The notes under the pieces are model-generated. The model was not told the origin of the DNA. It was given only the letters and a program-made list of their open reading frames with translations, and ran no database searches. This document shows, piece after piece, positions 2,468 through 26,962 of a stretch of DNA of 27,873 nucleotides. The stretch lies in IMG/VR virus record IMGVR_UViG_3300022719_000398, positions 1-27,873 of that record. One strand, 5' to 3'. Positions within the stretch are counted from its first letter, which is position 1, and each line of letters starts with the position of its first letter. A program made the position numbers and the translations under genes. This stretch comes from a virus (lineage: Duplodnaviria; Caudoviricetes).

Positions 2468-3226
2468 ATGGCTTCGCTGATCCGCGCGTTCGTGCTCATC
2501 CTGGCGCTGGCGCCACCGGCGGGCGCTGCCCGCGTCGCGTGTCTCGGAGACTCGTGGTCGCTCCGGGTGTGCGAGCATCTCGAGGTCCTGCTGGGCGAGC
2601 CGGTCGCGAACGCCGCGATCGGCGGCACCACCGCCGGCGTGCTCGCCAGCTCGAGCCAGGTCGCAGACCTGCTCGCGGCCAACCCGGACCTGCAGGTCAT
2701 CCATCTGTCGGTTGGCATCCTCGACGCGGTCGCCGTCGGTGCTCCGCCCGAGGACATCACCCCCTACGTCGACGCGATCGTCAGCCAGGCCGCCGCCGGC
2801 GGCGTCGTCGTCTCGCACGTCGGCTACGACTACCTGCCGAACGAGAATCCGGCCGCGGTGGCGGCGAGCGACGCCTGGCATGCCGCCATGGCGGCGGCGG
2901 CCAGCGCGAACCCGGCGTGGCGCTTCGAGGACACCCTCGGCTACTGGTGCCAGCTCGTGCTTCAAGGCGCGTCCGTGGTCGTCCCCGAGCCGTGCCCGCC
3001 CGAGGGCTACGCCGACTGGATCCACCTCACCGGCGCCGGCTACGAGGCGCTCGCCGTGCCTTCGGCGGCGGCCGTGCCCGCGGCTGCGCCCGTGCTCGAG
3101 CTGCTCGCCGGTGGTTGCGTGCTCGGGCTCCTGGCACGATGCGACTCTCGCGGGCCGGCAACTTCACAGGCTCGCGTACGCAAGAGCACACGCTCGCGAA
3201 CGCAGGAAATGCGCATGCGCAGCTAG
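2468..3226 (+). CDS. secreted SGNH/GDSL-family hydrolase with sorting-signal-like hydrophobic tail; last ~28 codons run through repeat element A
   Basis: Signal peptide MASLIRAFVLILALAPPAGA; block I LGDSW, block II NAAIGG, block III SVGILD, block V DWIH; tail VPAAAPVLELLAGGCVLGLLAR. Confidence 0.75.
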   Translation: MASLIRAFVLILALAPPAGAARVACLGDSWSLRVCEHLEVLLGEPVANAAIGGTTAGVLASSSQVADLLAANPDLQVIHLSVGILDAVAVGAPPEDITPYVDAIVSQAAAGGVVVSHVGYDYLPNENPAAVAASDAWHAAMAAAASANPAWRFEDTLGYWCQLVLQGASVVVPEPCPPEGYADWIHLTGAGYEALAVPSAAAVPAAAPVLELLAGGCVLGLLARCDSRGPATSQARVRKSTRSRTQEMRMRS

Positions 3227-3287
3227 TCGGCAAGTCGCCCACCGTCCGACCCGCAGGTCGACACACACCAGCCGGCAAGCTCGCGCA
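3137..3287 (+). repeat. phased-GCA element A
   Basis: GCA anchors end at 3160, 3182, 3204, 3221, 3232, 3255, 3277, 3287 (spacing 22,22,17,11,23,22,10); shares a 44-bp and a 28-bp block with element B. Confidence 0.85.
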
Positions 3288-3727
3288 GCGCGGCTCGCTC
3301 TCGGAGAAGCAGGTCGCGGTCGCTCTCCGCGTCGCGGCCGAGGCGGCTGAGCGCGCGGAAGCGCCGGAGCCCGAGAAGGTTCCGGTGCCGGAAGGCCGCC
3401 TCGAGGTTGAGGGCGTGGTCCTGTCCGTGAAGGAGCGCGAGGGCTACATGGGCGGCGTGGTCCTCAAGATGGTCGTCGACGGCGGCGGCTTCCGCGTCTG
3501 GGGCACGGTGCCCGCGGACATCGAGGACGACATCGAGCGGGGCTCGCGGGTGCGCTTCACGGCCACCCTCACCCGCGCCGACGACGATCCGTCGTTCGGT
3601 TTCTTCAAGCGCCCGGCGAAGGCCGTGCTCGTGCAGGCCGACCCGGAGCCGGCAGACGCCGCCGCGGGAGGACGACGAGGTTCCGTCGAGCTTCCAGTCG
3701 TCGATGCTCGAGCAGGTGCGCTCGTGA
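3139..3727 (+). pseudogene. OB-fold-like phage protein, N-terminus apparently replaced by element A, probable +1 indel near 3652
   Basis: KLAQRGSLSEKQ...VEGVVLSVK...KMVV...GFRVWGTVP...RGSRVRFTATL...FGFFKRP; first ~45 codons are repeat-element sequence; a codon-typical tail (..REDDEVPSSFQSSMLEQVRS*) lies in the +1 frame ending TGA 3725-3727. Confidence 0.5.
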
Positions 3728-4146
3728 ACCCCTACGTCCGGTACCTGGCCGACGAGCTGGCCGCCCTCCGCGCTGTCTCGGCCGAGGACGTCGCGTGGTT
3801 CGATGCGGAACGGCTCGAGCGCCGGCTGCACGACCTGCTGCGCGACGTCGCCCGCGAGATCCGGTCGAACGGTCCGACGCTCGGCGCCGCCCGCCGCCGG
3901 TGCGCGAAGCCGCTGTCGGTGTTCCTGCCGGTCGAGATGCGGTCGCGTCACCACGCCTCGCGTAGCGCGCGTCTGGCTGCGCTCGAGGCGGATCAGGCGG
4001 CGCTGCGGGCCATGCGCGTCGAGCTGTCGGAGGGCCTCGCTGCGCTCGACGCCTGGCGGTCCTGGGAGCGCGAGCAGCTCGCTCGGCGCCTCGAGGCCCA
4101 CCGTCGGTACCAGCAGGCTGTCGCCCACGCGCGCGGCAGGGGGTGA
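3724..4146 (+). CDS. hypothetical coiled-coil protein (currently in frame with the upstream ORF)
   Basis: GTG at 3724 in GTGA context; VNPYVRYLADELAALR... Confidence 0.55.
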   Translation: MNPYVRYLADELAALRAVSAEDVAWFDAERLERRLHDLLRDVAREIRSNGPTLGAARRRCAKPLSVFLPVEMRSRHHASRSARLAALEADQAALRAMRVELSEGLAALDAWRSWEREQLARRLEAHRRYQQAVAHARGRG

Positions 4147-4202
4147 ATTCGAGCTCCAGCGGAACCTTCCAGTCACGCGCGCGACTTTCGGTGTTCGGCC
4201 TC

Positions 4203-4262
4203 GCATTTTCCTCATGTATTTCGGGCAGATGCCGTAGAGCAAGGGTGAGAGGAGACTGGAAC
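4203..4262 (+). promoter_or_regulatory. repeated promoter+RBS cassette 1 (sigma-28-like spacing)
   Basis: TTTCC-TCAT-N15-GCCGTAGAGCAA, then GAGAGGAG and ATG 4263. Confidence 0.7.
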
Positions 4263-4469
4263 ATGGCCTACCGAACGACGAACCCCGCGGTTGAACGAGC
4301 AGCGAAGCGCGTCGCCGAGCGCAAGGCGCGGGTCGCCCGCCTCGAGCGCGAGCGCGCTGGCGAGCCGGCGCCCGAGGGCATGAGCACCTGCTGCTGCGTC
4401 TGCGAGCGCGGCCTGCCGAAGCCGATGCCCCGCGACTACGCGGTGTGCAGCGACTGCGAGGTGGAGTGA
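4263..4469 (+). CDS. small Zn-finger protein
   Basis: MAYRTTNP...CCCVC...CSDC; strong RBS. Confidence 0.7.
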   Translation: MAYRTTNPAVERAAKRVAERKARVARLERERAGEPAPEGMSTCCCVCERGLPKPMPRDYAVCSDCEVE

Positions 4470-4624
4470 TGCCCGTCTGCGGGAACTGCCTCGAGGATCC
4501 CGGCGCGACGATCGACGCCGAGGCGCCCGATCAGCCCGCGTGGCTGTGCGCGGTGTGCGCCGACGACCGCTTCGGTCGCGGCCGGTGGTCGCCGGTCGCT
4601 TCCGCGCCCGCCGAAGAATCGTAG
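4469..4624 (+). CDS. 51-aa CxxC/CxxC protein
   Basis: Own translation MPVCGNCLEDPGATIDAEAPDQPAWLCAVCADDRFGRGRWSPVASAPAEES*; TGATG overlap. Confidence 0.6.
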   Translation: MPVCGNCLEDPGATIDAEAPDQPAWLCAVCADDRFGRGRWSPVASAPAEES

Positions 4625-4634
4625 GCCGGTCCTC

Positions 4635-4692
4635 CGAATTTCCTCAGGTTTCACGGCGACATGCCGTAGAGCAACCATGAAAGGGGACAGCG
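4635..4692 (+). promoter_or_regulatory. repeated promoter+RBS cassette 2
   Basis: CGAATTTCC-TCAG-N15-GCCGTAGAGCAA, then TGAAAGGGGA and ATG 4693. Confidence 0.7.
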
Positions 4693-4902
4693 ATGCAGAG
4701 CACGAAGGACGCAGAGGGCACGGAGCTGAAGGTGGGCGATCCGGTGTTCTTCAAGGCCGACGTCGAGCAGTACGGCACGGTCGCGGAGATCGACGGCGAG
4801 AAGGTCGTCCTCGAGGGCCACTTCACCGGCGGCTACATCGGCGGCCAGACGCGCACGACGATGCGCGCCTCGGACGTCTACTACGACGGTCCGGCCCGCT
4901 GA
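4693..4902 (+). CDS. small SH3/KOW-like beta-barrel protein
   Basis: ELKVGDPVFFKADVEQYGTVAEIDGEKVVL; strong RBS. Confidence 0.7.
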   Translation: MQSTKDAEGTELKVGDPVFFKADVEQYGTVAEIDGEKVVLEGHFTGGYIGGQTRTTMRASDVYYDGPAR

Positions 4903-4921
4903 GAAAGATCGGCCGCCCGGT

Positions 4922-4979
4922 CGAATTTCCTCAGGTTCTACGCGCGGTTGCCGTAGAGCAAGGTTGAAAGGGGAACACG
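4922..4979 (+). promoter_or_regulatory. repeated promoter+RBS cassette 3
   Basis: CGAATTTCC-TCAG-N15-GCCGTAGAGCAA, then TGAAAGGGGA and ATG 4980. Confidence 0.7.
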
Positions 4980-5156
4980 ATGAACAGCCTCACTTCCTGG
5001 ATCCAGCTCGGCGAGCAGTACGCCAGCCACGAGATCCCCCGCGCGCAGCTCCGCGACGAGCTGGTGCGCGACGGCGTCTCGCGTCTCAACCGCCAGCGCG
5101 CCCTCCGCGGGTACGACCAGCAGGTCGCTCGCGCTTCGATGCCGGCGGCGCGCTAG
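4980..5156 (+). CDS. 58-aa hypothetical protein
   Basis: Own translation MNSLTSWIQLGEQYASHEIPRAQLRDELVRDGVSRLNRQRALRGYDQQVARASMPAAR*; follows the cassette-3 RBS. Confidence 0.7.
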   Translation: MNSLTSWIQLGEQYASHEIPRAQLRDELVRDGVSRLNRQRALRGYDQQVARASMPAAR

Positions 5157-5158
5157 CC

Positions 5159-5635
5159 ATGGGCACCCCGAGGAAGCGCCACGCCGGCGAGGCCGGCTAC
5201 ATCGCCGAGCGCATGAACCCGTTCGTGCCGGGCACCAAGGTCGTGATCTACGAGGCCGAGGCCCAGGGGGTCGACGTGGGCGGCGATCGCTACGCCGTCG
5301 TCTGCGACGCGCACAGCACGCTGATCGGCGCTCGCTCTCAGCGCGACGCCCGTCTCGTGATGAAGCGCCCCGACAACTTCTGCGAGGAGTGCATCGCGCT
5401 CGAGCAGGCCACCCGGCCCTCGAAGCCCGCGTCCGCGCTCGTCGCGACCGCCCTGTACCTCGGCGACAACGGCCGCGCGTTCTGCGGCGGCTGCGCCGGC
5501 GCGACCGCCAGGGCGTCGGGCTGCGATCTCTCCGGACAGCCCGTCCTGCGCGTCACGGCCGCCGACTTCCGGGCCGAGGGCCTCCCGGTCCCGTCCTGCG
5601 AGACCTGCGGGCGGCCGCCGGAGCCGGGCCAGTGA
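5159..5635 (+). CDS. Cys-rich hypothetical protein (two putative Zn-binding modules)
   Basis: MGTPRKRH...VVCDAH...FCEEC...FCGGC...CETC. Confidence 0.7.
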   Translation: MGTPRKRHAGEAGYIAERMNPFVPGTKVVIYEAEAQGVDVGGDRYAVVCDAHSTLIGARSQRDARLVMKRPDNFCEECIALEQATRPSKPASALVATALYLGDNGRAFCGGCAGATARASGCDLSGQPVLRVTAADFRAEGLPVPSCETCGRPPEPGQ

Positions 5636-5888
5636 GCCGGTACCGGGGGCGCGCTCGCCCGCCGCGGCCCGCGGACTACGAGGCCGTGGCGAGTGCCCGC
5701 ATCGGCACACCTGGCGGTGCTCCGTCACCTGGAAGTGGGCGCGCGGCTACCTCGCGTCGTGCATCCGACGCGCGCAGCCGTGGCTGTGGATCCGCGTTCT
5801 GTCGGTCGAGCGCTGCCCGACCTGCGCAAATCGCTGGAGTCGGCTCGTGCCGGTCGCCGCGCTCGAGGAAGGCGCGCCCCAGGGCTGA
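5632..5888 (+). pseudogene. possible frameshifted small Zn-ribbon gene
   Basis: GTG 5632 frame gives SRYRGRARPPRPADYEAVA; the -1 frame continues ECPHRHTWRCSVTWKW...ERCPTCANRW...PQG* (TGA 5886-5888) with no start of its own. Confidence 0.35.
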
Positions 5889-6092
5889 GAGGCGCAGCCC
5901 CAGGGCGCGGTCCTCGAGGCCCCCCGAGCATCCAGGCGCCGGCCGGCGTCGGCCCCGGGTGTCCCGGTCGCAGCGGGGCTCGCGGACCCCGCAACCCTAC
6001 CGCCGCCGGGCGTCGCCTGCCGGGCAACGTTGCCGGTTTCGCCCGCTCGTCTGAGGCGCGAAAACCGGAAGCGCCGCTCGGGCTCTCCCCGG

Positions 6093-6107
6093 GGTAGACT
6101 CGGCGGC
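6093..6107 (+). promoter_or_regulatory. putative -10 element for a leaderless transcript
   Basis: TAGACT at 6095-6100, 7 nt before ATG 6108, no SD. Confidence 0.45.
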
Positions 6108-7508
6108 ATGGCACGGAAGACTCCGCGGAAGGCCGCCTCCGGCAAAGGCTCCCCCGCTCGCGGCCGGAAGCGGCCCTCACGGCCGTCGAACGCGCTCCCC
6201 CGCCCGTCGTGGCGGCGGGTCGCCGATCTCCGTCCCTCGCGCAACGCGCGGCTCCACCCGGCCGAGCAGGTCGAGCGGATCGCGCGCTCGATCGACGAGT
6301 TCGGCTTCCTGAACCCGGCGCTCGTGGACGAGCGCGGCTTCATCCTGGCCGGCCACGGCCGCTGGCAGGCCGCCAAGCTCCGCTCGCTCGACGAGATCCC
6401 GGTGCTCGAGGTGGCGCACCTGTCGGCCGCGCAGAAGCGGGCCTACATCCTGGCCGACAACCGGCTGGCCGAGCTGTCCGGCTGGGACTCCGAGATTCTG
6501 GCGTCCGAGCTGTCGGCGCTCCGCGACGTCGAGGGCTGGGACCTGTCGCTGATCGGTTTCGACCCGGACTCCGTGCGCGACGCGCTCGCGGACGCCGCGC
6601 GCCGAACCCGGGCGGCCACCTCGCCCGATGCCGCTCCGGCTGCGCCGGACGTCGTCGTCTCGAGGCCCGGTGACGTCTGGTTGTGCGGCCCGCACCGGGT
6701 GACGTGCGGCGACGCGACGAAGCCCGAGGACGTCGCCCGGGTCCTCGACGGCGCGACCCCCGAACTGTGCGTGACGGATCCGCCGTACGGGATCGAGTAC
6801 GACCCCGTCTGGCGCGCCAAGCTCTCCCGGACCGGGAAGCGGCCGCCCCGCGATCGCGCCGTCGCGAACGACGACCGGGCCGACTGGCGCGAGGCATGGG
6901 CGCTGTTCCCGGGCTCCGTGGTCTACGCGTGGACCGGCGGCGCCGGTGCGCTGATCATCGCCGGCCAGGCGCTCGAGGCGTCGGGCTTCCCGCTCCGCGC
7001 GCAGATCATCTGGCGCAAGCCCCACTTCCCGCTCTCCCGCGGCGCGTACACGTTCCAGCACGAGTCGTGCTGGTACGGCATGCGCGAGGACCACGAGGCG
7101 TGCTGGTACGGCGTCCGGAAGGGCGGGAAGGCCGGCTGGACGGGGCCCTCGAGCGCCTCGACGATCTGGGAGGCGTCGCTCGACGAGACCGTCTCGCGGC
7201 ACTCGACTCAGAAGCCCGTCGAGCTGTTCCGCCTGGCGCTCGAGCATCACCGGGGCGACCTGTACGAGCCGTTCCTCGGGTCGGGCACCGGGCTGATCGC
7301 GGCGGAGATGACGGGGCGAACGTGCTACGGCCTCGAGCTGGATCCGTCGTTCGTCGACGTGGTCGTGCGTCGGTGGCAGGACTTCACGGAAGCCACCGCG
7401 CGTCTCGAGGGCGACGGGTCGTCGTTCTCGGAGGTCGCTCAGGAGCGAGGCAATGCCGCAGCGAAGACGAAGGGCCGCCGCCGGAAGCGCGCGCGGTCGA
7501 AGGCGTGA
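6108..7508 (+). CDS. ParB/Srx N-terminal domain fused to an N6A/N4C DNA methyltransferase (beta-class motif order)
   Basis: NARLH..EQVERIARSIDEFGFLNPALVD...ILAGHGRWQAA...ADNRLAE; catalytic TDPPY; HSTQKPVEL; YEPFLGSGT; typical position upstream of terminase. Confidence 0.92.
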   Translation: MARKTPRKAASGKGSPARGRKRPSRPSNALPRPSWRRVADLRPSRNARLHPAEQVERIARSIDEFGFLNPALVDERGFILAGHGRWQAAKLRSLDEIPVLEVAHLSAAQKRAYILADNRLAELSGWDSEILASELSALRDVEGWDLSLIGFDPDSVRDALADAARRTRAATSPDAAPAAPDVVVSRPGDVWLCGPHRVTCGDATKPEDVARVLDGATPELCVTDPPYGIEYDPVWRAKLSRTGKRPPRDRAVANDDRADWREAWALFPGSVVYAWTGGAGALIIAGQALEASGFPLRAQIIWRKPHFPLSRGAYTFQHESCWYGMREDHEACWYGVRKGGKAGWTGPSSASTIWEASLDETVSRHSTQKPVELFRLALEHHRGDLYEPFLGSGTGLIAAEMTGRTCYGLELDPSFVDVVVRRWQDFTEATARLEGDGSSFSEVAQERGNAAAKTKGRRRKRARSKA

Positions 7509-8100
7509 GTGGTCCGACGAGGACCGGATCCGGGTTCGGAAGCTCGCCCAGGCAGGGGCGACCCGCGCCGAGCTGGCGCGCATGCTCGACATCTCCGAGC
7601 GGTCGCTCGCGCGCCACTTCCGGGAGGTGCTCGTCGGGCTGCGGCCCGGGGGCGTCGAGGCCGACCGCGAGTGGCGGGACGAGGAGCGGCAGCTAGTTCG
7701 GTGCGGCGTCGCCATGGGCATCCCCCAGGACGACATCGCGCGCGTCCTCAAGATCTCGCCCGTCCGGCTGCGCGAGGACTTCCCCGAGGAGCTTTCGTCC
7801 GGCGCGGCCGAGGCGAACATCGCCGTCGGCAACGCGCTCTACCGCCAGGCCACGGTCGCCGGCAACGTCCGCGCGCAGATGTTCTGGCTCCGGGCGAAGT
7901 GCGGCTGGCGGGAGGGCGGCGTGTTCCGTCCCGAGGGCTCGATCGACGAGGCCGACATGCTCGACGAGCTGCGCGCGCTCGACGATCGCGGCCTCGAGGC
8001 TCTCGACGTCCTCATGCGGTTCTACGAGGCCACGGACGATGAGTCGGCGGAGCCCCGGCTCTCCGCGGTGGCGCGGAAGCCGGGCGACCGGCTTCAGTAG
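7453..8100 (+). CDS. terS: terminase small subunit (two HTH-like repeats)
   Basis: GATRAELARMLDISERSLARHF and GIPQDDIARVLKISPVRLREDF; ALYRQAT..GNVRAQMFWLRAKCGWRE; position before terL. Confidence 0.78.
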   Translation: MPQRRRRAAAGSARGRRREWSDEDRIRVRKLAQAGATRAELARMLDISERSLARHFREVLVGLRPGGVEADREWRDEERQLVRCGVAMGIPQDDIARVLKISPVRLREDFPEELSSGAAEANIAVGNALYRQATVAGNVRAQMFWLRAKCGWREGGVFRPEGSIDEADMLDELRALDDRGLEALDVLMRFYEATDDESAEPRLSAVARKPGDRLQ

Positions 8101-8312
8101 GACCAGATGGCTCGGCACGCAGCTCATCGGCAGCGACTAAGGCTCGCGTGCGCAAGTCCTCAGTCTCGCGAACGCAGGAAATGTGCATGCGCAGCTAGCC
8201 GGCAAGTCAGGCAGTGTCCGACCGGCAACTTCACACGCTCGCGTACGCAGGCGGCATACCGTCCAGAACGCGGGCGCTGCGCATGGAACGCGCAGGAGCC
8301 TTGCAGCCACAC
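8101..8312 (+). repeat. phased-GCA element B
   Basis: Anchors end at 8121, 8132, 8154, 8176, 8193, 8204, 8227, 8249, 8272 (GCG variant), 8283, 8294, 8305 (spacing 11,22,22,17,11,23,22,23,11,11,11). Confidence 0.85.
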
Positions 8313-8340
8313 CAGCCGAGACCAGCCGGGCAGGGACGGT

Positions 8341-8733
8341 GAGCCTCGGCGCGAGCCTCGAGCCTTCGCGCGAGCCTTCAGCCTGGCCGAAGCCTTCAGC
8401 CTCCGCGCGACCCTCGAGTCGGCCGCGAACCGCGAGCCGGCGGTCGAGCCTTCACGGAGTCTCAGCTTCCAGGGACCTGCGCAGTCGGCGCGAGCGTTCT
8501 TCCAGCGACCTGCGAGCCGGGCCTGCCCCGCTCGGGCGAGCTGCCAGCAAGCTGCTAGCGCCGCCGGCTCCGCCGGCTCGAGCTGCCAGCGACCTGCGAG
8601 CGGCTCCGCCTCCGCCTCTGCCTCCGCTGGAGGCAGTCCGCGCTGCGGACGACTTGCGGGTCGGCGTCCAGCGTTCTTCCAGCGACCTGCGAGTACGTTT
8701 CCAGCGTTCTTCCAGCGACTTGCTACCGGTCCG
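8341..8733 (+). repeat. degenerate minisatellite between terS and terL (AGCCT cluster, then 11-bp units)
   Basis: AGCCT at 8342, 8354, 8361, 8373, 8380, 8391, 8398; CCAGCGACCTG/CCAGCGTTCTT-type 11-mers at 8469, 8491, 8502, 8544, 8586, 8668, 8679, 8701, 8712. Confidence 0.8.
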
Positions 8734-8735
8734 CA

Positions 8736-10367
8736 GTGACCGCGGCCGCGCTCCCGCCGCAGCTCGAGGGCATCGCTCAGAACCCGCGCCTCGGGCGGGA
8801 CATGGTTCGCGTCCTCCGGGCCGAGCGTCGGTGGTCGGACTACGCGCGGTTCGTCTGGCACCGGCTGGAGCCGAACCACGCGCTCGTCTGGAACTGGCAC
8901 CTCGACTGCATCGGCGAGCATCTCGAGGCGGTCACCGCCGGCGAGATCCGGCGCCTCGTGATCAACGTGCCGCCCGGGTTCTCGAAGTCTCTCTCGGTGA
9001 ACGTGCTGTGGCCGACCTGGGAGTGGGGCCCGCGCGATCTCTCGTACATGCGGTACCTGAGCTTCGCCTACTCCTCGCTCCTGACCGAGCGCGACAACCA
9101 GCGCTCGCTCCGGCTGCTGCAGTCGGACGTCTACCAGCGCTGGTGGGGCGACCGGTTTCGGCTGCTCACGTCGGGCGTGAAGCGCTTCGACAACGACGAG
9201 ACCGGCTTCCGGATCGCGTCGTCGGTGTCCGGCACTGGCACCGGCGAGCGCGGCGATCGCGTGCTCATCGACGACCCCAACAACGTCAAGGAGGCCGAGT
9301 CGAAGCTGATCACCGAGGGCACGATCCGGTGGTTCGCCGAGGTGGTGCCGTCGCGCGTGAACGACATCCGGACGTCCGCGATCGTCTGCATCCAGCAGCG
9401 CACGGGCGTCAACGACGTCACGGGCCACATCCTGAAGAGCGATCTCGGCTACGAGTGGGTGTGCCTGCCGATGGAGTTCGAGCCGGACCGGCCCTGCTAC
9501 ACGTCGCTCCCTCGCCCCGACGTCGCGCCACGCCGCATGCGCCTGGTGAAGCCGTCCGACGACACGACGCCGCGGTGGGTCGCCGAGGGCGAAGACCACG
9601 ACGGCCCGGTCGAGTGGGAGCGCGAGGTCCGCGAGGTCACGCTCCAGGATCGGCGTGTCGAAGAGGGCGAGATGCTCGACCCCGAGCGCTTCCCGGCCGA
9701 GAACGTCGAGAACGACCTGAAGAAGCCGCTTCGCTCGCAGGGCGGCGAGGCCGCCGTCGCCGGGCAGCTCCAGCAGCGCCCGACGCCTCGAGGCGGCACC
9801 CTGTTCCGGCGCGAGGACTTCCGCTTCATCGACGCCTCCGACCTGCCGCCCCACCTGCGGTGGGCCCGGGGTTACGACCTGGGCGGCTCGGCGAAGAAGA
9901 AGTCTGCCTATTCCGCCGCAGCGAAGGTGGCGGTCGATGGCGAGCGGGTGTTCATCGGCGACGTCGCAAGGGTCCAGCGCGACCCGACGGAGGCGCAGGC
10001 ATGGATCCAGGCGATCGCTGAGCTGGACGGCGCCGACGTCGCCATCGACTTCCCGAACGATCCTGGCCAGGCGGGAAACTGGCAGGTGCAGTCGCTCGCG
10101 GGTCAGCTCCAGGGCTTCCGCGTCCACTCGTCGCCGGAGTCAGGCGACAAGGAAGACCGGGCTGGTCCCTGGGCGGCGCAGGTGAAGCACCACAACGTCT
10201 ACCTGGTGCGCGCCGAGTGGAATGCCCCGTTCATCGCCGAGGCTGTTACGTTCCCGGGCGGCGACTTCAAGGACCAGGTGGACGCGACGTCGCGAGCCTA
10301 CGCGCGGGCGCTGCTGCTGGCGAAGCAGGTGGGCTCGATCCCGATGGCGCCGAAGGTGATCCGCTAG
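8736..10367 (+). CDS. terL: terminase large subunit
   Basis: Walker A LVINVPPGFSKS, Walker B VLIDDP, IQQR motif, nuclease RGYDLG...KDQVDA; start uncertain (GTG 8736 or ATG 8802). Confidence 0.95.
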   Translation: MTAAALPPQLEGIAQNPRLGRDMVRVLRAERRWSDYARFVWHRLEPNHALVWNWHLDCIGEHLEAVTAGEIRRLVINVPPGFSKSLSVNVLWPTWEWGPRDLSYMRYLSFAYSSLLTERDNQRSLRLLQSDVYQRWWGDRFRLLTSGVKRFDNDETGFRIASSVSGTGTGERGDRVLIDDPNNVKEAESKLITEGTIRWFAEVVPSRVNDIRTSAIVCIQQRTGVNDVTGHILKSDLGYEWVCLPMEFEPDRPCYTSLPRPDVAPRRMRLVKPSDDTTPRWVAEGEDHDGPVEWEREVREVTLQDRRVEEGEMLDPERFPAENVENDLKKPLRSQGGEAAVAGQLQQRPTPRGGTLFRREDFRFIDASDLPPHLRWARGYDLGGSAKKKSAYSAAAKVAVDGERVFIGDVARVQRDPTEAQAWIQAIAELDGADVAIDFPNDPGQAGNWQVQSLAGQLQGFRVHSSPESGDKEDRAGPWAAQVKHHNVYLVRAEWNAPFIAEAVTFPGGDFKDQVDATSRAYARALLLAKQVGSIPMAPKVIR

Positions 10368-10382
10368 GAGGAGGGGCCCGGC

Positions 10383-11804: not shown

Positions 11805-13501
11805 GCGGGCCTGTCGTCCACGCGTTCCCGTCGGGCGCGCCGCTCGACGAGTCGCAGTTCGCGCTGCTGGCCGGTCGCGTCGGTGGCCAGACGCTGAACG
11901 GCGGTGTCGACCCGACGGACGAGCTGACCCTGCGCGGGACCGCCGATGCGGCGCGCGGCTTCATCAACCTCGACTCGCGAGTGGTGATCGGCGACGTCCA
12001 CCCCGCTACGTCGAGCGCCACGATCCTGTCGTGGACCCAGGCTTACAGCCAGGTCACCGGTGGGCTCGGGCAGGACCGGGCGCTCGATCTGTCGCCGTCG
12101 GTCACGATCAACGACATCGCGTACATCTGGAACACGGTCCGCAGCTCGGGGACGTACACTCAGTCGGCCGCGCCGAACCCGTTCTTCAGCGCGTTCATCC
12201 TGTTCGCGGCCGAGCCGCTGCTCGAGTCAGACGACGTGGCGTTCGGGACGCTGAGCCCTGTCGCCATGTTCGCCGGTCCGCATATCCAGGTCGACGGCAT
12301 CGGCGCGCAGCCGGCCACGCCGTTCATCCACGGCATCCAGTTCAACCCGCGGCTCAGCGCCCTGCAAGCTGGCGACACCGTCACCGCGACGGACATCTGC
12401 GCGCTCGAGGTGAACCCCTACTTCACCACCGGCAACGCGACCGCGACGGCCGCGTTCGGCACGATCACGGGACTCCGCTGCGAGAACATCGTCGTGTTCC
12501 CGTTTGCCAGCAATCTGGGCACCGAGACGCTCGCCAACTACTTCGGCCTCGACTTCGCGAACCAGACGCTGACGGCCTCGGGCACCATCGCTGCGGTTCG
12601 CAGCGCACTCACCGCGGGCACCGGTCGCTACTTCCTCTACGACACCGGTGGCGCGCAGTCGCTGCTGCAGGGCTCCCTGTTCCTCGGAGCCACGAACCCG
12701 ATCGAGCTGCGGTGGAACGGAACCGGGCTGCGGTTCGATCCGCCCGCAGCGGTGAGCGGCCAGAATTTCCTGATGGAGTTCGGCACCGGGACTGGCTCGA
12801 CGCTGCGCATGTATCACACGGGCGGCGTCCGGTTCCAAGCATCGCGCTATTCGATGGGTGTCCAGCCGGCGAATCCGACAGACCCGTATTGGTTCGCTGT
12901 CAGCCCGCTCGAGCGATCGACGCAGCTCGGCCAGAACGCGTTCTCGGATCTCGAGGTCGACGGCTCGATCGAGCAGCTCACGCTGTTCGACGACGCCACG
13001 CGCGTCGAGTCGATCTACTCCGTGATCCCGGACATGCAGGGCAACGCCAACGTCATCGACGACTTCTCGGGCATCCACGTCGTCGGCGACGACAAGAACA
13101 TCGACGTCACCCGGCAGCAGACGCTGTGGGTGGAAGACGGTCGCGCGCGCTTCGACGCCGTTCTGAATCTGGGGCCGGCCTCGCCGTCGCAGATCACCGC
13201 GAACCAGAACGACTACGCCATCCCGGTCGGCGCCGCGGCGCGCTGTCTGCTCCGGCTCTCGACCGACGCCAGCCGGACCATCACCGGGATCGTCCCCGAG
13301 CAGGACGCCGATCTGATCGTGGTGGTGAACGTCGGCTCGAACGACCTGGTGCTCGCCCACGAGAATGCCAGCTCGGCGGCCGCGAACCGCATCATCTCCC
13401 CGACCGGGGCGAACTACACCCTCGGCGCCAACGAGTCGGCGACGCTGTGGCACGATGCCACCACCAGCCGCTGGCGCATTCTCCAGGGCACAGGAGCCTG
13501 A
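11801..13501 (+). CDS. 566-aa fibre/receptor-binding-like virion protein
   Basis: GTG 11801 (GTGA overlap); T/S/G/N-rich beta composition; FALLAGRVGGQTLNGG..ELTL near the N-terminus and QITANQNDY..LRLSTDASRTITGI..NVGS..ENASSAAANR..SRWR at the C-terminus, both reminiscent of phage fibre proteins. Confidence 0.65.
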   Translation: MSGPVVHAFPSGAPLDESQFALLAGRVGGQTLNGGVDPTDELTLRGTADAARGFINLDSRVVIGDVHPATSSATILSWTQAYSQVTGGLGQDRALDLSPSVTINDIAYIWNTVRSSGTYTQSAAPNPFFSAFILFAAEPLLESDDVAFGTLSPVAMFAGPHIQVDGIGAQPATPFIHGIQFNPRLSALQAGDTVTATDICALEVNPYFTTGNATATAAFGTITGLRCENIVVFPFASNLGTETLANYFGLDFANQTLTASGTIAAVRSALTAGTGRYFLYDTGGAQSLLQGSLFLGATNPIELRWNGTGLRFDPPAAVSGQNFLMEFGTGTGSTLRMYHTGGVRFQASRYSMGVQPANPTDPYWFAVSPLERSTQLGQNAFSDLEVDGSIEQLTLFDDATRVESIYSVIPDMQGNANVIDDFSGIHVVGDDKNIDVTRQQTLWVEDGRARFDAVLNLGPASPSQITANQNDYAIPVGAAARCLLRLSTDASRTITGIVPEQDADLIVVVNVGSNDLVLAHENASSAAANRIISPTGANYTLGANESATLWHDATTSRWRILQGTGA

Positions 13502-13507
13502 CCCCCT

Positions 13508-13759
13508 ATGTCGAAGCCGAACGGCCATGACGTCGCGCCCGCGGCGGCCACTCCCGCCCCGCAGCAGGCACCGCCGGCGCCGCAGCCTCAGGAGTGGACC
13601 CACGCGATGGTGCCGCGGGACACGTTCCTCGCGCTGCAGCGCTTCCTGACGCGCGTTGCCGTCGACGGGGCCGAGGCCGGCGCGCTGGCGCAGCAGCTCG
13701 GCGCGGCGCAGCCCGCGGTCGTCCCCCCGCCTGGTGAGCCGCGGGACGATCCGGAATGA
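13508..13759 (+). CDS. small hypothetical protein (possible fibre-associated chaperone)
   Basis: RBS CAGGAG; ATGA overlap with next gene. Confidence 0.6.
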   Translation: MSKPNGHDVAPAAATPAPQQAPPAPQPQEWTHAMVPRDTFLALQRFLTRVAVDGAEAGALAQQLGAAQPAVVPPPGEPRDDPE

Positions 13760-14673
13760 CGGTCGCGCTCCGCCTGACGACGTTCGTCACGAATCTCGGG
13801 ACGCCGCTCACCGGGCTCGCGGGCGCGAACATCCCCGAGGTGGAGATCCGGAACGCGGCAACCGGCGCCGTCGTCCAGGCGGCCATCGACGGCACGGAGA
13901 TCGGGTCGGGTTTCTGGGGCTTCGACTTCACCCCGACGCCGGGGCTGCGCTACGTCGCTCGGTGGGACCATGATCCGGCCGGCATCGGCCAGGTGACGCC
14001 TCAGGAGCGCTACGCGTCGGCTGGCTTCGCCGAGTTCTTCGACGACGTCGTGCCCGAGGGCGGTAGCGACGACTACGGCACGCTCGTGCAGCGCCTCGAC
14101 GCTGCTGTCTCGAGCCGTGCGTCGCAGGCCGACATCCTGTCGGACGGAACCCCGTTTCCGGGCGCGCGGATCGACGCCGATGTCTCGAGCCGTGCCTCGC
14201 AGGTGTCCGTCGACGGCCTCAACGACCTGTCGCAGGCCGAGATCCTGAGCGACGCCACCCCGTTCCCGGGTGGCTCCATCGACGCCGCGATCTCCTCGCG
14301 CGCAGTCGCCGGCGATGCAATGGCGCTCACCGGAGCGGCGGTGGATGCCATCTGGGACGAGCCGGTGGCGGGCCACGAGTCTGCCGGCACCGTCGGGAAG
14401 GCCCTCACGCGGCTGTTCCTCGAGCACACCCGGACCCTGCTGTTCTTCGCGTCCGGGGCCATCACCGGTGGCGGACGCGAGGTTCCGGACGGTGCGATCT
14501 CGCACATGGAGGTCCAGGTGCGCGACCAGGGCGGCGCGTTCCCTGGCTCGAGCTACTTCGTGGTGTTCAACTACGAGGCGTCGGACAGCGCTTCGACGCC
14601 CCCGCGAACATCGACAACCCAGGCCGCCGCGCCAGTCGACGGGTCGTTCACCTCGACGGGGTTCCCGTCGTGA
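13756..14673 (+). CDS. putative virion protein with internal repeats
   Basis: Three D-A-x-[VI]-S-S-R-A and two ILSDxTPFPGxxID repeats, plus AVDAIWDEPVAGHESAGTVGKAL. Confidence 0.7.
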   Translation: MTVALRLTTFVTNLGTPLTGLAGANIPEVEIRNAATGAVVQAAIDGTEIGSGFWGFDFTPTPGLRYVARWDHDPAGIGQVTPQERYASAGFAEFFDDVVPEGGSDDYGTLVQRLDAAVSSRASQADILSDGTPFPGARIDADVSSRASQVSVDGLNDLSQAEILSDATPFPGGSIDAAISSRAVAGDAMALTGAAVDAIWDEPVAGHESAGTVGKALTRLFLEHTRTLLFFASGAITGGGREVPDGAISHMEVQVRDQGGAFPGSSYFVVFNYEASDSASTPPRTSTTQAAAPVDGSFTSTGFPS

Positions 14674-15872: not shown

Positions 15873-16054
15873 CACCGACCGGCAGCTCACCAGACGTTGC
15901 CGATGCAAGAGCACACGCTCCAGCACGCAGCTCATGTGCATGCGCAGGCGATCGGCAGCTCGGAAAGAGCTCGGCGCGCAACTCGACACTCTCCCGTGCG
16001 CAGGTCGCACACCGTTCCGAATGCAGCGAATGCGCGCCGCGTCGGCAGCCACAC
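15865..16054 (+). repeat. phased-GCA element C
   Basis: Anchors end at 15884, 15907, 15929, 15946, 15957, 15980, 16002, 16025, 16047 (spacing 23,22,17,11,23,22,23,22). Confidence 0.85.
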
Positions 16055-16128: not shown

Positions 16129-16496
16129 ATGCGCCGCCTGTCCGTGCTCGCCCTGTTCGTCCTGTCCGTCATCCCGTTCCCCGCCCTCGCGCTTGACGCT
16201 GCGATCGACCCGGTGCTCGAGCCGCTGCTCGAGGGCCAGTCCTTCGACGCCCGCCTCGGGTCCCGTTGCCGACCCGCATCCAGCTCGCGCTCGAGGTGGA
16301 GGAGAACCCGGTGATCGCGGGCGAGATGCAGCTTCTCGCGCTCACCTCGACCGAAGCTCACGACAGCCCGACGTGTCTCGGCGGTGTCGAGGCGCCGGCG
16401 TCGGATCGCATCGTCGGGTACGTGCCGGAGCCGTCTGCCGCACTGTCGCTCCTCGCCGGCGGAACGCTGCTCGCGCTCCTCGGCCGCCGCCGATGA
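16129..16496 (+). pseudogene. PEP-CTERM protein split by a -1 frameshift near 16260
   Basis: RBS AAGGAG; signal peptide MRRLSVLALFVLSVIPFPALA; the -1 frame ends VPEPSAALSLLAGGTLLALLGRRR*; one extra G in GGG 16258-16260 restores a 122-aa ORF. Confidence 0.75.
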
Positions 16497-20439: not shown

Positions 20440-20504
20440 CACGTTCGCTTCGCGGCACGGCGTTGATCTCGACGTCGTGCAGCCACTCAGAGGGGAGGGG
20501 CCCG

Positions 20505-21647: not shown

Positions 21648-21659
21648 ACGGGGGGAGCG

Positions 21660-22667: not shown

Positions 22668-22673
22668 CGCGCC

Positions 22674-23048
22674 ATGGGCCTCGAGAACGTTCCGCGGCAG
22701 CGCCTCGCAGGGCTGTGGACGCCCACGCTCACGATCGTCGCGACCCTCGACGCGGTCACGCTCAACCGCGCGTTCTACTCCGTCTCGGGCAACCTGGTGT
22801 CCTGCTTCCTGTCGGTCCAGTGCGATCCAAGCTCGACGGCCGAATGGCGCTTCAGGGTTTCGCTCCCGATCGCGACTCCGCTGGCAGCGATCGGCGACAT
22901 CGCCGGTGCCGGTGGAATCCTCGGCAGCGCCGGCTTCGGCGCCGGCGTCGTGGCGGACGTCGCGAACGACGAGGCGCTGTGCTTCGGCGCCCACAGCGCG
23001 GCCGAGGAGACCGCGACGTTCTCGTTCGGCTACCTGGTAGGTCCGTGA
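22674..23048 (+). CDS. small beta-rich virion protein (fibre-tip-like)
   Basis: GLWTPTLT...AFYSVSGNLVSC...FRVSLPI. Confidence 0.6.
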   Translation: MGLENVPRQRLAGLWTPTLTIVATLDAVTLNRAFYSVSGNLVSCFLSVQCDPSSTAEWRFRVSLPIATPLAAIGDIAGAGGILGSAGFGAGVVADVANDEALCFGAHSAAEETATFSFGYLVGP

Positions 23049-23452
23049 GTGAGGCCGCAGGGCTCGCGTTCTATGCCGAGATGGTCGAGGTCGCGGCGGA
23101 GCTGCTCCTCGAGTTCGGCCGAGACGCAACCCTCGAGCGCGCTGCGCGGCTGACGGCGACCGACCCCGCGAAGCCCTGGCGCGCCGTCCAGGGGCCTGCC
23201 GCGGCGGCCCCGGCGCAGTCGTTCACGGTCCGCGCGGTCATCACTTCGGACACCCGGGAAGCCCGCGAGGGCACGACGCTGAAGGCCAACGAGCGCGTGA
23301 TGTTCCTGCAGTCCGCGACGGCGCTCCCGGAGATCGCCGACGACGAGTGGGAGGTCGTCGATGCCGACGGCACCCGGCTCGGGGTCCGGACGATGACGCC
23401 GATCCAGCCTGGCCAGGTTCTGATCCTCTACCGCGCGGTGGTGACGGTGTGA
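23045..23452 (+). CDS. head closure / head-tail joining protein
   Basis: GTG 23045; YAEMVEVAAELLLEFGRDATL...DPAKPW...GTTLKANE...PIQPGQVLILY. Confidence 0.7.
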   Translation: MSEAAGLAFYAEMVEVAAELLLEFGRDATLERAARLTATDPAKPWRAVQGPAAAAPAQSFTVRAVITSDTREAREGTTLKANERVMFLQSATALPEIADDEWEVVDADGTRLGVRTMTPIQPGQVLILYRAVVTV

Positions 23453-23880
23453 GCACGAACATCACCGATCTCGACTTCCGGAACGCACTGTTCACGTCGT
23501 TCGCCGCGGCCTGGGCGGACGCGACGCCAATCGCGACCCAGAACGACACGTTCGATCCGGCGAAGGTGTCGGGCGATGCCTTCGTCCGCCTGGTGCTCAC
23601 CGGTCAGGCGGAGGGCGAGACCGCGCTCTCGAGTTCGGTGGCTCGAGACCACGTGCAGCGCGAGGGCACGCTGACGGTGCAGGTCTACGTCCGCGAGGGG
23701 ACGGACATGGACCAGACGTTCACCCTGCTCGAGGCCGTCAAGGCCTGGGCGAAGCATCCAGGCGCGGCGGAGACGCTGCTGCGCTCGATCGGCACGCCGG
23801 TCCCCATCGGCTCGGATGGCGCGTGGTTCCAGACCGACCTGTCGATGACCTGGCTTTACTGGAGTTCGCGCGCGGCGTAG
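23449..23880 (+). CDS. tail terminator-like protein
   Basis: GTG 23449; PIATQNDTFDP...FVRL...REGTLTVQVYVREG...GAWFQ; precedes the tail tube gene. Confidence 0.72.
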   Translation: MSTNITDLDFRNALFTSFAAAWADATPIATQNDTFDPAKVSGDAFVRLVLTGQAEGETALSSSVARDHVQREGTLTVQVYVREGTDMDQTFTLLEAVKAWAKHPGAAETLLRSIGTPVPIGSDGAWFQTDLSMTWLYWSSRAA

Positions 23881-23919
23881 CCTTCGGGCCGTCGCCGCCG
23901 CGCGTAGGGAGGGGTTCTC

Positions 23920-25050
23920 ATGCCCGTCGAAGCACGACCGGACGACCAGTTCTCGCGAGTCAACCTGCTGCTCGGCTTCCCGGTGGTCGAGTTCACGCCG
24001 CGGCTCGCCGACGGCTCGCTCGGCGCGGTGGTGCCGATGGGCATCATCGAAGGGTTCTCGCTGCAGAAGGTCGTCGAGAACCTCGAGCTGGAGCGCGGCG
24101 ACTCGGGGCTGCTGACCGTCGACCGCGAGATCATCAGCAAGTTCAAGCCGTCGTTCCAGATCTCGACGTTCAACCTGCGGTCCGACGTCGCTCGCCTGAT
24201 CCTCGGCTCGGACGTAGCGACCGCCGTCGTCGCGGATCCGGCGGCCCAGATCACGAACGAGGCGCTGCAGGTTCCGACCGGCGCCGACGCCGCGCGGACG
24301 TTCATCGATCTCGCGCGGGCCGACGTCGACGAGACGCCGGCGAACCTGACGCTCACCTGCGCCACGATCACCGGCGAGACCGTCGAGAACGTGACCGGCG
24401 ACGGCACGACGCTCGGCGACTACAAGCTCGCCTTCAAGCCGTTCATCCTCGGCGACGTGACGTCGCTGCAGGAGGTCGACTCGAGCGGCGCCGTCGTGCG
24501 CACGTTCACGGTGCAGGCGGGTGCGCCCGCCGGCGCGACCGAGGCGCAGCTTACAGTCGGCACCGGAACCGGCTCGGGCGAGCTGGAGTTCTTTCAGGCC
24601 GTCGGCGCCGGCAACTCGATCATCGCGACCTACACCCCGTCGCACGCGCTCGAGGAGGACGAGGCAGCGGCGAACAACGACATGATCCTCGATCCGCTGC
24701 TCGGCCGGATCCGCTTCCCGTACCTGACCGTGGCGGGCGCCGCGCTTCGCCCCGGCCAGAACGTCGAGCTGGACTACCAGTACGTGCGGCGCGCCTCGAC
24801 GACGCTGCAGCCGTTCCGCCAGGGCGGGCTCGCCTTCGAAGGCGTCGCCTCGGTAAAGCAGCTCACCGACATCGGCGTGAACTTCACGTGGTCGGTGCCG
24901 TCGGTGACCCTGCTGCTGACCGACGACGATCTCACGTTCGGGGCGGAGAACTTCGCGACTGGTACGCTCCGCATGAACCTGAACGATGCCGGTGGGTCGA
25001 CGCGCTACGGCACGATCGCGTGGAGCAGCGAGACCGAGGCCAACGCCTAG
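23920..25050 (+). CDS. major tail tube protein with inserted beta-rich domain(s)
   Basis: 376 aa between terminator and chaperone genes; NLLLG...F...MG.IEGFSL at the N-terminus; RBS AGGGAGGGG. Confidence 0.75.
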   Translation: MPVEARPDDQFSRVNLLLGFPVVEFTPRLADGSLGAVVPMGIIEGFSLQKVVENLELERGDSGLLTVDREIISKFKPSFQISTFNLRSDVARLILGSDVATAVVADPAAQITNEALQVPTGADAARTFIDLARADVDETPANLTLTCATITGETVENVTGDGTTLGDYKLAFKPFILGDVTSLQEVDSSGAVVRTFTVQAGAPAGATEAQLTVGTGTGSGELEFFQAVGAGNSIIATYTPSHALEEDEAAANNDMILDPLLGRIRFPYLTVAGAALRPGQNVELDYQYVRRASTTLQPFRQGGLAFEGVASVKQLTDIGVNFTWSVPSVTLLLTDDDLTFGAENFATGTLRMNLNDAGGSTRYGTIAWSSETEANA

Positions 25051-25069
25051 GCCCGCCCCGGAGGAGCCA

Positions 25070-25660
25070 ATGTCCGAAGCCGCTGCCGACACCGCCTACG
25101 CCGGCGTCGCTCACCCCCCGACGCGCGAGGTCACGGCCGCGGGCCGGACGTTCGTCCTGAAGCCGTGGACCATGGCCCAGCGCCGCGAGCTGCGGCCGGC
25201 GCTCGCCGCCCTGCTCGAGCAGATCGAGCAGGCCAGCCAGGCCGGCACGAAGATCCCGGCCAACCTCGCTGGGCTGTTCCTCGGGTTCGAGGAGCAGGTG
25301 GCCGCCGTCGTGCGAGCCTCGGTGCCGCGCACGGAGATCTCCGACGACGCCTGGGAGTCGATGGCGTGGGAGGACCTGCCCGTGCTCGCGCAGGCCGTCT
25401 GGGAGCTGAACGTGCAGCGGGGGCCGGTGGGAAAACTGATCGCCGGGCTGCAGGGTCGTCTCCAGGAGGCGATGCGGTCCGCAGCGGAGAAGGCGGCCGC
25501 AGCGGGCGAGCAGCAGCTCGGCGCGGATCCGGCGCCGCCGTCCTCCGCCGCCTCCGAACCGGAGAGCCCGACCCCGACGTCGACCGGGCCGAGGCAGCCG
25601 GCCTCGCCTTCCTCGGGCGCCGGTGGGGCGCCGATCCCGAACGCCTCCGCCATGCCCTGA
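25070..25660 (+). CDS. tail assembly chaperone (gpG-like, 0 frame)
   Basis: RBS GGAGGAG; follows the tail tube gene; in-frame slippery G-GGA-AAA at 25429-25435. Confidence 0.8.
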   Translation: MSEAAADTAYAGVAHPPTREVTAAGRTFVLKPWTMAQRRELRPALAALLEQIEQASQAGTKIPANLAGLFLGFEEQVAAVVRASVPRTEISDDAWESMAWEDLPVLAQAVWELNVQRGPVGKLIAGLQGRLQEAMRSAAEKAAAAGEQQLGADPAPPSSAASEPESPTPTSTGPRQPASPSSGAGGAPIPNASAMP

Positions 25661-25935
25661 CGGACGTCCAGTTCGCCGGCTACGTGCGGCTCGAGGCGGA
25701 GGCCCAGCGCAACGAGATGGTGATCGCCGCGACCGGTACCCTGGCGGCGATCGCCCACGCGTTCGCTCCGAAGACGAAGCCCATGGAGCGCTTCCGGCGC
25801 TCGCTGCAGGCCGGACAGGGCGACGATCCCTCGGCGCTGGACGGCCCGGCGATGGCCGAGATCCGGCGGCGGCTGGCGCCCTACGTCCAGGAGCGCCGCG
25901 TGGCGCTGGTGCGCGACGAGGAGGCAGCGCCGTGA
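25070..25935 (+). CDS. tail assembly chaperone gpGT-like product via programmed -1 frameshift (about 288 aa)
   Basis: GGGAAAA heptamer; the -1 frame is open to TGA 25933-25935 and reads as protein-like (LAFLGRRWGADPERLRHALTDVQF...). Confidence 0.72.
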
Positions 25936-26381
25936 ACATCCCGGGCGACGCTCTCGGCTCGACGCGACGGCTGAACCTGCGGTTCGAGTACTTCGATCCG
26001 CCGCTCACGCTGTCGGTGCTTCCGGCCGTCGGCGACCTGAACCCGCTCTACATCGCGGCCGCGGCGCGACTGGCGCCCTACGAGCTGTCGGCGGCGCTCC
26101 CGGAGGACCACCCGCGTCGTCTCACCGAAGAGCGCGCCGAGGAGCTGCTCCTGCCGGTGTTCGCCGAGGCGGTGATCGCCGGCTCCGACGATCCGGCTCA
26201 CGAGGGCTGGGGCCCCGACGAGTGGGTCGCGTGGCTCGCGGCGCACCGCGACGAGTTCCGGTCGATCCGCGAGGTGGCCGAGCACCGCCGAAACTTCGTC
26301 ACGGAGGCCGAAGACCAGGCCAGGGAGGCCGCTTCGGCCGAGCTGGGGCTCCTGCGTCGGGCGTTCGGCGGAGCGGCCTGA
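25932..26381 (+). CDS. second tail-assembly-chaperone-like protein
   Basis: GTG 25932; G..NPLY...R...PY...ELLLPVFAEAVIAG...F..I...A....NF. Confidence 0.55.
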   Translation: MNIPGDALGSTRRLNLRFEYFDPPLTLSVLPAVGDLNPLYIAAAARLAPYELSAALPEDHPRRLTEERAEELLLPVFAEAVIAGSDDPAHEGWGPDEWVAWLAAHRDEFRSIREVAEHRRNFVTEAEDQAREAASAELGLLRRAFGGAA

Positions 26382-26382
26382 C

Positions 26383-26805
26383 GTGGCGACCCTGGCGTCC
26401 CTCGAGCGGCGCTTGAACCGCGCTGCCGACTCGCTCGACCGGTCGCTGCGCACGATCGTCGGGGAGGTCATCGCCTCGATCGGCGAGGAGGTGGTGCCTG
26501 CGACGCCGGTCGACACCGGCTTTGCTCGGGCGAACTGGCGGCCCTCGCTCAACGTGGCCGCCGAGTCGCCGATCTCGTTCCTCGATCCGACCGGCGCAGC
26601 GACGGTCGCGAAGATCCGCGTCGTGTCCATGCGGTGGCGACCGGGCGACGTGTTCTTCCTGCGCAACAACGCCGAGTACATCGGCGACCTGAACCGCGGC
26701 TCCTCGCCGCAGGCCCCGCCCGGCTTCGTTCAGGCGAGCGCGCGGCGCGGCGCCGAGCGCGCGATCGCCAGCTTCCAGTCCGGCCGGCTCCTGGCGATCC
26801 GGTGA
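26383..26805 (+). CDS. HK97 gp10-like tail completion protein
   Basis: ATPVDTGFARANW...NNAEYIGDLNRGSSPQAPPGFV. Confidence 0.85.
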   Translation: MATLASLERRLNRAADSLDRSLRTIVGEVIASIGEEVVPATPVDTGFARANWRPSLNVAAESPISFLDPTGAATVAKIRVVSMRWRPGDVFFLRNNAEYIGDLNRGSSPQAPPGFVQASARRGAERAIASFQSGRLLAIR

Positions 26806-26962
26806 TGACGGTCGACCGGCAAGATCAGACGCTCGTGTATGCAAGAGCACAGGCTCTAGAACGCAGCCGATCGGCAACTCGGGTCGGGCGGCAACTCGTC
26901 GGCAGGCGACCAGACGTTTCGTACGCAGCTCAGATAGAGCTCCAGACGCAGGCAACCGGCAG
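26806..26962 (+). repeat. phased-GCA element D
   Basis: Anchors end at 26821, 26843, 26865, 26876, 26893, 26904, 26927, 26950, 26961 (spacing 22,22,11,17,11,23,23,11). Confidence 0.85.

Follow-up and report, generated by a model that had tools for sequence, protein, structure and literature searches.

In phages of Alphaproteobacteria, CtrA boxes (TTAA-N7-TTAA) recur with an 11-bp period and are clustered in gap regions; the portions of the report drawn on here describe 30 TTAA repeats within 1.3 kb of phage Delta and at least five independent origins of such boxes (PMC9437464). According to excerpts of other reports, ArcA operators comprise two to five direct repeats on the same face of the helix, spaced by 11 bp and in some cases by 22 bp (PMC3798270), the CarH/CarA operators of myxobacteria are tandem 11-bp direct repeats of the form nnnnTnnACAn (PMC9304148), and CdbA, a nucleoid protein of Myxococcus, recognizes a one-turn direct repeat that is enriched between genes, and bends DNA. 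For CdbA, the mutagenesis oligonucleotides in the accessible part of that report suggest a site with a TGT core at 10 bp (PMC7156744). Here we describe a stretch of 27,873 nucleotides from a tailed phage (IMG/VR record IMGVR_UViG_3300022719_000398; hereafter the window), in which the trimer GCA is repeated in helical phase in five arrays: islands A to D and a reversed array, B′. We find that a selected 11-bp GCA code is common to several phage lineages and to the upstream regions of one bacterial class, and we consider it reasonably probable that the arrays are regulator sites shared with the host.

The repeated word is GCA, usually followed by A or G, and a T three bases ahead of the trimer is favoured (49% of window anchors). 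A preliminary description of the window had divided islands A to D into units of mainly 11, 22 and 17 bp; these lists are exact for A, C and D, and for B apart from the second 23-mer, which ends in GCG rather than GCA. The 17-bp unit that it had counted in A to C resolves into an in-phase GCA at +11 and then TGCGCA (+6). Its proposal of an 11-bp periodicity stands against shuffled controls: the four islands hold 31 GCA pairs at lags of 11, 22 and 33 bp taken together, compared with 4.8 ± 2.3 in dinucleotide shuffles and 8.6 ± 2.8 when an equal number of GCAs is placed at random, and 31 pairs were reached in 0 of 5,000 trials under either null, even taking the best period from 4 to 23. A window-wide scan gives islands A to D the top four places (scores 16, 16, 13 and 12), the next on the plus strand scoring 3. 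The islands are also A-richer than their surroundings, as had been noted (22–24% A versus 14.5% for the window). Co-orientation on the plus strand holds for A to D and fails for B′, which adjoins B, runs in reverse, and at 8340–8460 repeats, in reverse orientation, a word found in the 22-mers. Logan contigs from run X1, possibly the source sample, cover all four islands with no differences inside them, and contigs from run X3 cover most of island C; the islands are therefore present in a public assembly, as judged from contigs rather than raw reads.

Islands A to D are homologous copies of one cassette (109 nt, 61–79% identity) whose 22-mers share an inner word, and their common spacing is therefore partly a matter of common descent. 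Nevertheless, spacing is kept while interiors diverge, as the preliminary description had held: in a 55-nt core common to the four islands, with anchors chosen by eye, 9 of 9 anchor bases are identical in all six island pairs, whereas spacers are 48–74% identical. Island A lies where one would expect the stop codon of the upstream gene and the first (5′) third of the gene downstream. Because it replaces a stop codon and an N-terminal region kept in three homologues, its position suggests insertion by recombination, and the window arrays may have spread as copies of the cassette. A neutral or selfish dispersed repeat, copied by recombination and keeping its spacing by descent only, would fit the resemblance among the islands, their shared inner word, the location of A where parts of two genes are missing and the lack of any transposase found in the window. 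We regard that explanation as quite unlikely given the fully conserved anchors, the lack of an island-flanking terminal inverted repeat among the 25 longest inverted repeats listed, and the recurrence of the same phase and spacer preference in unrelated phage DNA, coding DNA included, and in bacteria.

The view that the islands are helically phased double-stranded DNA sites under selection, rather than RNA elements, is borne out. A sense-strand RNA signal, such as antitermination or a structured RNA, had been offered as an alternative, and islands A to D do lie on the late-gene strand and start shortly after stop codons; we consider it extremely improbable, since the islands have no Rfam match and no folding excess (z −1.9 to +0.5), GCA is not flanked by hairpin pairing, both strands are used in relatives, and the period is strictly helical. 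GNA-triloop hairpins were rejected on the same absence of pairing excess around GCA. Scans of the islands for Rfam families, tRNAs, sigma-70 promoters and terminators returned nothing there. The statement that no named element has this grammar also holds so far as our search extends: a literature search, with most subscription papers outside its reach, found no description of the element, and the part of one preprint that was available (10.64898/2026.09.14.751636) does not mention it. The exact island word had 0 matches in viral contigs, and neither island B nor the array of one related locus (L095) matched cultured phages.

We then scanned 281 loci related to the window through TerL (the terminase large subunit) or capsid, a number in which duplicates and the window itself are counted. 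An excess of GCA at lag 11 (z ≥ 4) occurs in 10 of them, corresponding to six distinct phages, while the control trimer ACG gives 0 of 281. One of the positives, L039, was found through the DNA pattern itself, in a spaced-pattern scan whose 19 loci were mostly simple repeats, with about six in initiator-like genes and L039 the one true relative; it is related through terL and portal, and its array lies between terS (terminase small subunit) and terL. Four further loci (L095, L210, L182 and L171) have dense arrays immediately upstream of terL and on the late-gene strand, as for B, so that the position and orientation of island B are those of its relatives' dense terS–terL arrays. In the complete genome G006, 164 GCA pairs at lag 11 compare with about 45 at other off-frame lags and are confined to about 58–68 kb, where the signal consists of the terS–terL array and a divergent small-gene cassette, on both strands. 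We read this cassette as early genes. About 140 GCA-N8-GCA pairs extend across this 8.5-kb early region, coding DNA included, and the genome fragment G001 has 143 pairs versus 24 in the control. Inside early coding sequences there are 41 pairs in G006 and 50 in L004, versus at most 15 at other lags, and the late coding sequences of G006 have 1. Phased anchors of the relatives and of the window have flanking preferences in common.

A quick TerL tree (64 rows) places the window, L004 and the L095 clade apart, and the distribution of arrays over it needs at least three changes. Three separate terminase lineages have GCA arrays, which are grouped within a portion of the phage genome. One gain with later losses may account for this distribution. 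The TerL sisters L136 and L137 (59–61% identity, with the window's type of TerS) have no array in the 4–6 kb examined upstream, and S0112, the nearest cultured relative, has no GCA signal. The GC skew of G006 was uninformative. Smaller arrays were seen as well: a weak phased one in G003 (L449:3938-4110), in a gap ahead of small genes, and a four-GCA array at a structural gene junction of G006 (L301:10366-10401), opposite to the late-gene strand. In G007 (L445, L446 and L060), CA/TG (0.48) and GC (0.69) dinucleotides are strongly depleted, which accounts for the avoidance of GCA there; we rejected it as a separate signal.

The recurrence of a dense array at the terminase genes, lying between terS and terL or next to them (window, L095, L210, L182, L171, L039 and L004), together with the facing orientation of B and B′, would suit a packaging signal, with the arrays as TerS wrapping or recognition sites, B and B′ forming a pac-like inverted pair and A, C and D serving as spare copies. 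We consider this unlikely. TerS families fail to track the arrays, the window type occurring in array-free L136 and L137 and the unrelated type of L004 and other array-rich relatives in G008 and G010, which lack the signal; moreover, the signal extends over 8.5 kb of early genes, and like arrays stand upstream of ordinary genes on bacterial chromosomes. TerS is disfavoured as the reader on the same grounds. The preliminary description had envisaged a system private to the phage and read by TerS, the ParB-methyltransferase or the helix-turn-helix (HTH) protein encoded at 1575, and this is not supported: L136 has the ParB-methyltransferase and no array in the upstream DNA examined, and the 1575 protein has no Pfam match and no homologue among the loci tested.

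Instead, the arrays lead to a bacterial group. One TerL relative sits in the Myxococcota metagenome-assembled genome (MAG) G011, whose class we take to be UBA9160. Across 121 genomes of this class we counted 507 four-GCA arrays, whereas the reversed pattern gave 181 and a lag of 10 gave 242; for 81 genomes from the class of G012 the count was 259, against 238. Five-GCA arrays occur in 72 of 225 class genomes, with a longest run of 10. A stricter pattern is matched in 29 of 37 class genomes; outside the class it is matched in 44 of 164 Myxococcota genomes (counted by hand), in 39 of 151 genomes of the phylum of Methylobacterium and in 19 of 151 of that of Desulfocapsa. We inspected 81 distinct host arrays and removed one perfect tandem repeat; 71 of the remaining 80 lie between genes and 9 inside open reading frames. 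Both flanking genes could be assigned for 65 arrays: divergent pairs account for 28, tandem pairs for 35 and convergent pairs for 2 (background 86, 204 and 37), so that an early impression of convergent-gene elements was wrong. Scanning 66 of the 134 flanking proteins identified, among others, flagellins, PEP-CTERM proteins, an exosortase and a sigma factor. Upstream of 30 flagellin genes there are 52 lag-11 pairs compared with about 12, and upstream of 29 recA genes there are 3. The same class also has separate GCA repeat families of 10-bp period, for example in many copies in contigs C21–C29 of G036.

A matrix built from the host spacers scores the window islands at 1.00 (shuffled −0.53 ± 0.36), G006 at 0.69 and L210 at 0.63, compared with −0.38 for non-host prophage loci. 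Window islands and G006 reach the level of the host arrays themselves, and the prophage loci stay near background. The same motif is thus present in bacterial upstream regions and in phage DNA with a like spacer preference, and its occurrence upstream of genes in one Myxococcota class argues that the reader is host-encoded. On this evidence we give somewhat better than an even chance to the reading that the arrays of the 11-bp-period GCA word are sites for a host regulator that the phage exploits. The host would be a member of this class of uncultured Myxococcota; we place the window phage there tentatively, from its matrix score and from PEP-CTERM-like genes, which are found in both the window and G006, and this placement is the weakest link of the argument.

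The matrix also bears on replication-origin iterons bound by a winged-helix initiator. Such iterons are suggested by 11-bp-phase GCA within initiator-like genes of the unrelated phages L037, L052, L213 and L276 (identified by eye) and by an A-tract after the array in the L095 clade. However, on the host matrix the initiator-gene iterons fall near background (−0.50), a value that sets them apart from the islands; G006 encodes a primase-helicase of its own and yielded no recognisable initiator; and the window has five scattered copies flanked by structural or unknown genes, with no AT-rich tract beside them. We judge this explanation very unlikely for the islands. The loci with 11-bp-phase GCA in initiator-like genes (L037, L043, L048, L052–L054, L213 and L276) probably do carry origin iterons.

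The −24 and −12 boxes of sigma-54 promoters each contain GCA, 11 bp apart, and 14 of the 52 flagellin pairs are such promoters, leaving 38. Given the identical spacing, the phage arrays could be degenerate sigma-54 sites that decoy sigma-54 polymerase. We hold this to be highly unlikely: few phage pairs have the GGCAC..TGCA asymmetry (4 of 140, 5 of 120 and 0 of 15), GCA tends not to be followed by C, and one sigma-54-like site was found in the window (inside terL, at 8896) and none in G006. The missing asymmetry makes sigma-54 itself an unlikely reader. Among 17 flagellin promoters with a sigma-54 site, 6 have a second GCA pair 92–105 bp upstream, the usual position of an activator. No sigma-54 promoter lies 80–150 bp from the phage arrays, which favours a decoy or coat over an enhancer.

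The best candidate for the reader comes from G006, which encodes a stand-alone 61-residue Fis-type HTH protein (L299:2175-2357; P0007). In 8 of 8 class genomes its best match is the C-terminus of a GlrR-like protein (50–54% identity, E ~1e-16), and no comparable short orthologue of that protein was found in five genomes outside the class. The shared HTH links G006 with the class and leaves the GlrR-like protein as the leading candidate, although we put its role as the reader of the GCA arrays only as a tentative proposal from sequence comparison, somewhat short of an even chance. The host protein (L510–L512, L543–L547) has 320–350 residues and is encoded divergently from mutL at the three loci inspected. 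It has no receiver domain, lacks GAFTGA in 8 of 8 orthologues and has an intact Walker A in 4 of 8, with a nearly invariant HTH; it is accordingly outside the canonical sigma-54 activators, which have a GAFTGA loop and an intact Walker A, and its best NCBIfam match, GlrR (E 4.5e-44), is far below cut-off. In 7 of 8 orthologues GCAA lies 11 or 22 bp ahead of the GAC in the gene's own −35 box, a pattern expected from autoregulation. The orthologue genes have a conserved sigma-70-like promoter, and one more stand-alone homologue of the HTH protein exists, 73% identical. CdbA is an unlikely reader: none of 61 genomes from the class with the arrays had a match to its family (TIGR04563), against 4 of 5 outside controls.

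The reader might instead be encoded by the phage, as a small DNA-binding protein that coats the early region or the junctions between genes; its domain would then be of host origin, which would explain why phage and host arrays look alike, and the protein could be the captured HTH or one from the missing half of the genome. The stand-alone HTH of G006 and a signal that is densest over early genes, on both strands, speak for this. We nonetheless consider it rather improbable, as no small DNA-binding protein is common to the array-bearing phages and the stand-alone HTH gene was not found in the available sequence of the window or of G001 (62% complete), both of which are fragments. That absence also counts against the reading of a host-shared regulator, as do several other observations. 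Fis-type HTHs usually read inverted, not direct, repeats. L004 (0.02) and L039 (0.15) fit the host-spacer matrix weakly. Genome-wide pairwise GCA periodicity is absent from 800 kb of host DNA, which indicates that the host arrays are discrete sites. The link to sigma-54 is partial (15 of 81 arrays versus 17 of 260 background gaps, 7 of the 15 being orthologues), and the test of array and sigma-54 composites is small (7 versus 2 versus 2 in five genomes); we draw no support from a further count, 49 of 225 genomes with a pair and a sigma-54 site, for which a valid control is lacking. The class arrays were found with a phage-linked MAG as the starting point and compared with three outside groups. 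A capsid relative occurs in 2 of 225 class genomes, the best (contig 31 of G011, 43% identity) having no arrays, and a TerL sister group includes a contig binned in a Polyangiales MAG.

If a host regulator does read the arrays, one protein would be expected to bind cooperatively and head-to-tail on one helix face, with the 22- and 33-bp steps as skipped turns. By docking this regulator the phage would either recruit it or soak it up. The phage arrays are more likely to act as high-avidity decoys or as a protein coat than as enhancers; as phage DNA multiplies, a decoy could draw the regulator off flagellar and surface-protein promoters, and alternatively the arrays might gate phage transcription by the state of the host. 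A fuller version, which we regard as speculative and rather unlikely in its entirety, is that in this CdbA-less class of Myxococcota a disarmed enhancer-binding protein has become a global regulator, polymerising along GCA repeats of 11-bp period, and that phages hijack it through up to about 140 sites in the early region and at gene junctions (coding DNA too, as a coat or sponge) and through a stolen stand-alone DNA-binding domain as competitor. The arrays would give an uncultured class of bacteria its first regulatory motif and a candidate for a global regulator, both deduced from phages of that class, and the GCA motif could mark the hosts of metagenomic phages.

The window is a 27.9-kb siphophage fragment of 71% GC (66–72% in every 500-bp stretch) that encodes a ParB-methyltransferase, both terminase subunits, portal, head and tail proteins and the beginning of the tape measure protein (Table 1). 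Homologues of the gene downstream of island A have an additional N-terminal region at the place of the island, with a Cys-pair motif in 2 of 3. A search with the GDSL protein matched the GDSL protein alone. PEP-CTERM-tailed proteins are encoded by phage at 2468–3226 and 16130–16496 of the window and at 13252–14016 and 14420–14923 of L299 (G006); one of them is the GDSL hydrolase, and their tails suggest that they are possibly sorted to the host surface. A promoter-like repeat occurs three times (4199–4256, 4631–4688 and 4918–4975), each copy ahead of a small gene and composed of TTTCCTCA, about 17 bp, TGCCGTAGAGCAA and then a purine-rich ribosome-binding site. An open frame of 210 codons at 8107–8739 spans B and B′ and overlaps the start of terL; it has no Pfam or PHROG match, and its 33-bp repeats preserve reading frame and helical phase alike. 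In L004, an Acb2/Tad1-like gene (9771–9992) lies directly ahead of terL and an ArdC gene (641–1573) lies in the early cassette.

Table 1. Phased GCA arrays and genes discussed in the window (position 1 is its first nucleotide).
Feature	Coordinates	Strand	Remarks
GDSL-hydrolase gene, PEP-CTERM-like tail (tail judged by eye)	2468..3226	+	frame continues into island A
Island A, phased GCA array	3139..3287	+	anchor ends 3160, 3182, 3204, 3215, 3221, 3232, 3255, 3277, 3287
Phage gene of unknown function, phrog_18425/4750/4265	3295..4146	+	
ParB-N6/N4 methyltransferase	6108..7508	+	candidate reader, rejected
Terminase small subunit, tandem HTH type	7453..8100	+	candidate reader, disfavoured
Island B, phased GCA array	8111..8305	+	directly after terS stop
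Island B′, reversed array	8340..8725	-	GCA/GAA anchors at 11 and 33 bp (8478-8721)
Terminase large subunit	8736..10367	+	query for gathering relatives
Island C, phased GCA array	15873..16047	+	after head-tail adaptor stop, upstream of PEP-CTERM-tailed gene
Small PEP-CTERM-tailed gene	16130..16496	+	Pfam match 19.6 bits, slightly below cut-off; host clue
Island D, phased GCA array	26808..26961	+	between Neck1 and tape measure gene
Tape measure protein, 5′ part	26980..27873	+	

Set against the described systems, as far as the excerpts of those reports extend, the GCA arrays resemble CdbA sites in their Myxococcota setting, one-turn direct repeat and intergenic enrichment. They share with the CarH/CarA operators the 11-bp repeat and the T three bases before the trimer, and differ in having GCA rather than ACA and in that CarH/CarA operators are limited to a few carotenoid promoters; identity with the CarH operator was rejected because the anchor is GCA and not a TnnACA repeat. 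The 11/22-bp spacing is alike in ArcA operators, which are host operators only, whereas runs here reach 10. ArcA is a response regulator of E. coli with another motif. Like sites of GlrR/NtrC-family enhancer-binding proteins, host arrays can be placed about 95–105 bp before sigma-54 promoters; unlike that family, the candidate reader has neither a receiver domain nor GAFTGA, and the repeats are direct, not inverted. The closest known system is that of the CtrA boxes, host-regulator sites that are likewise clustered, of 11-bp period and present in several phage lineages. The word, the host and the class of protein differ, the putative sites here also occupy 8.5 kb of coding DNA, on either strand, and, unlike the CtrA phages as described in that report's available portions, one phage here (G006) carries the DNA-binding domain of the candidate reader. 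If the fuller version is true, phage exploitation of host regulators would extend from a few CtrA promoter boxes to kilobase-scale loading of sites and a captured DNA-binding domain.

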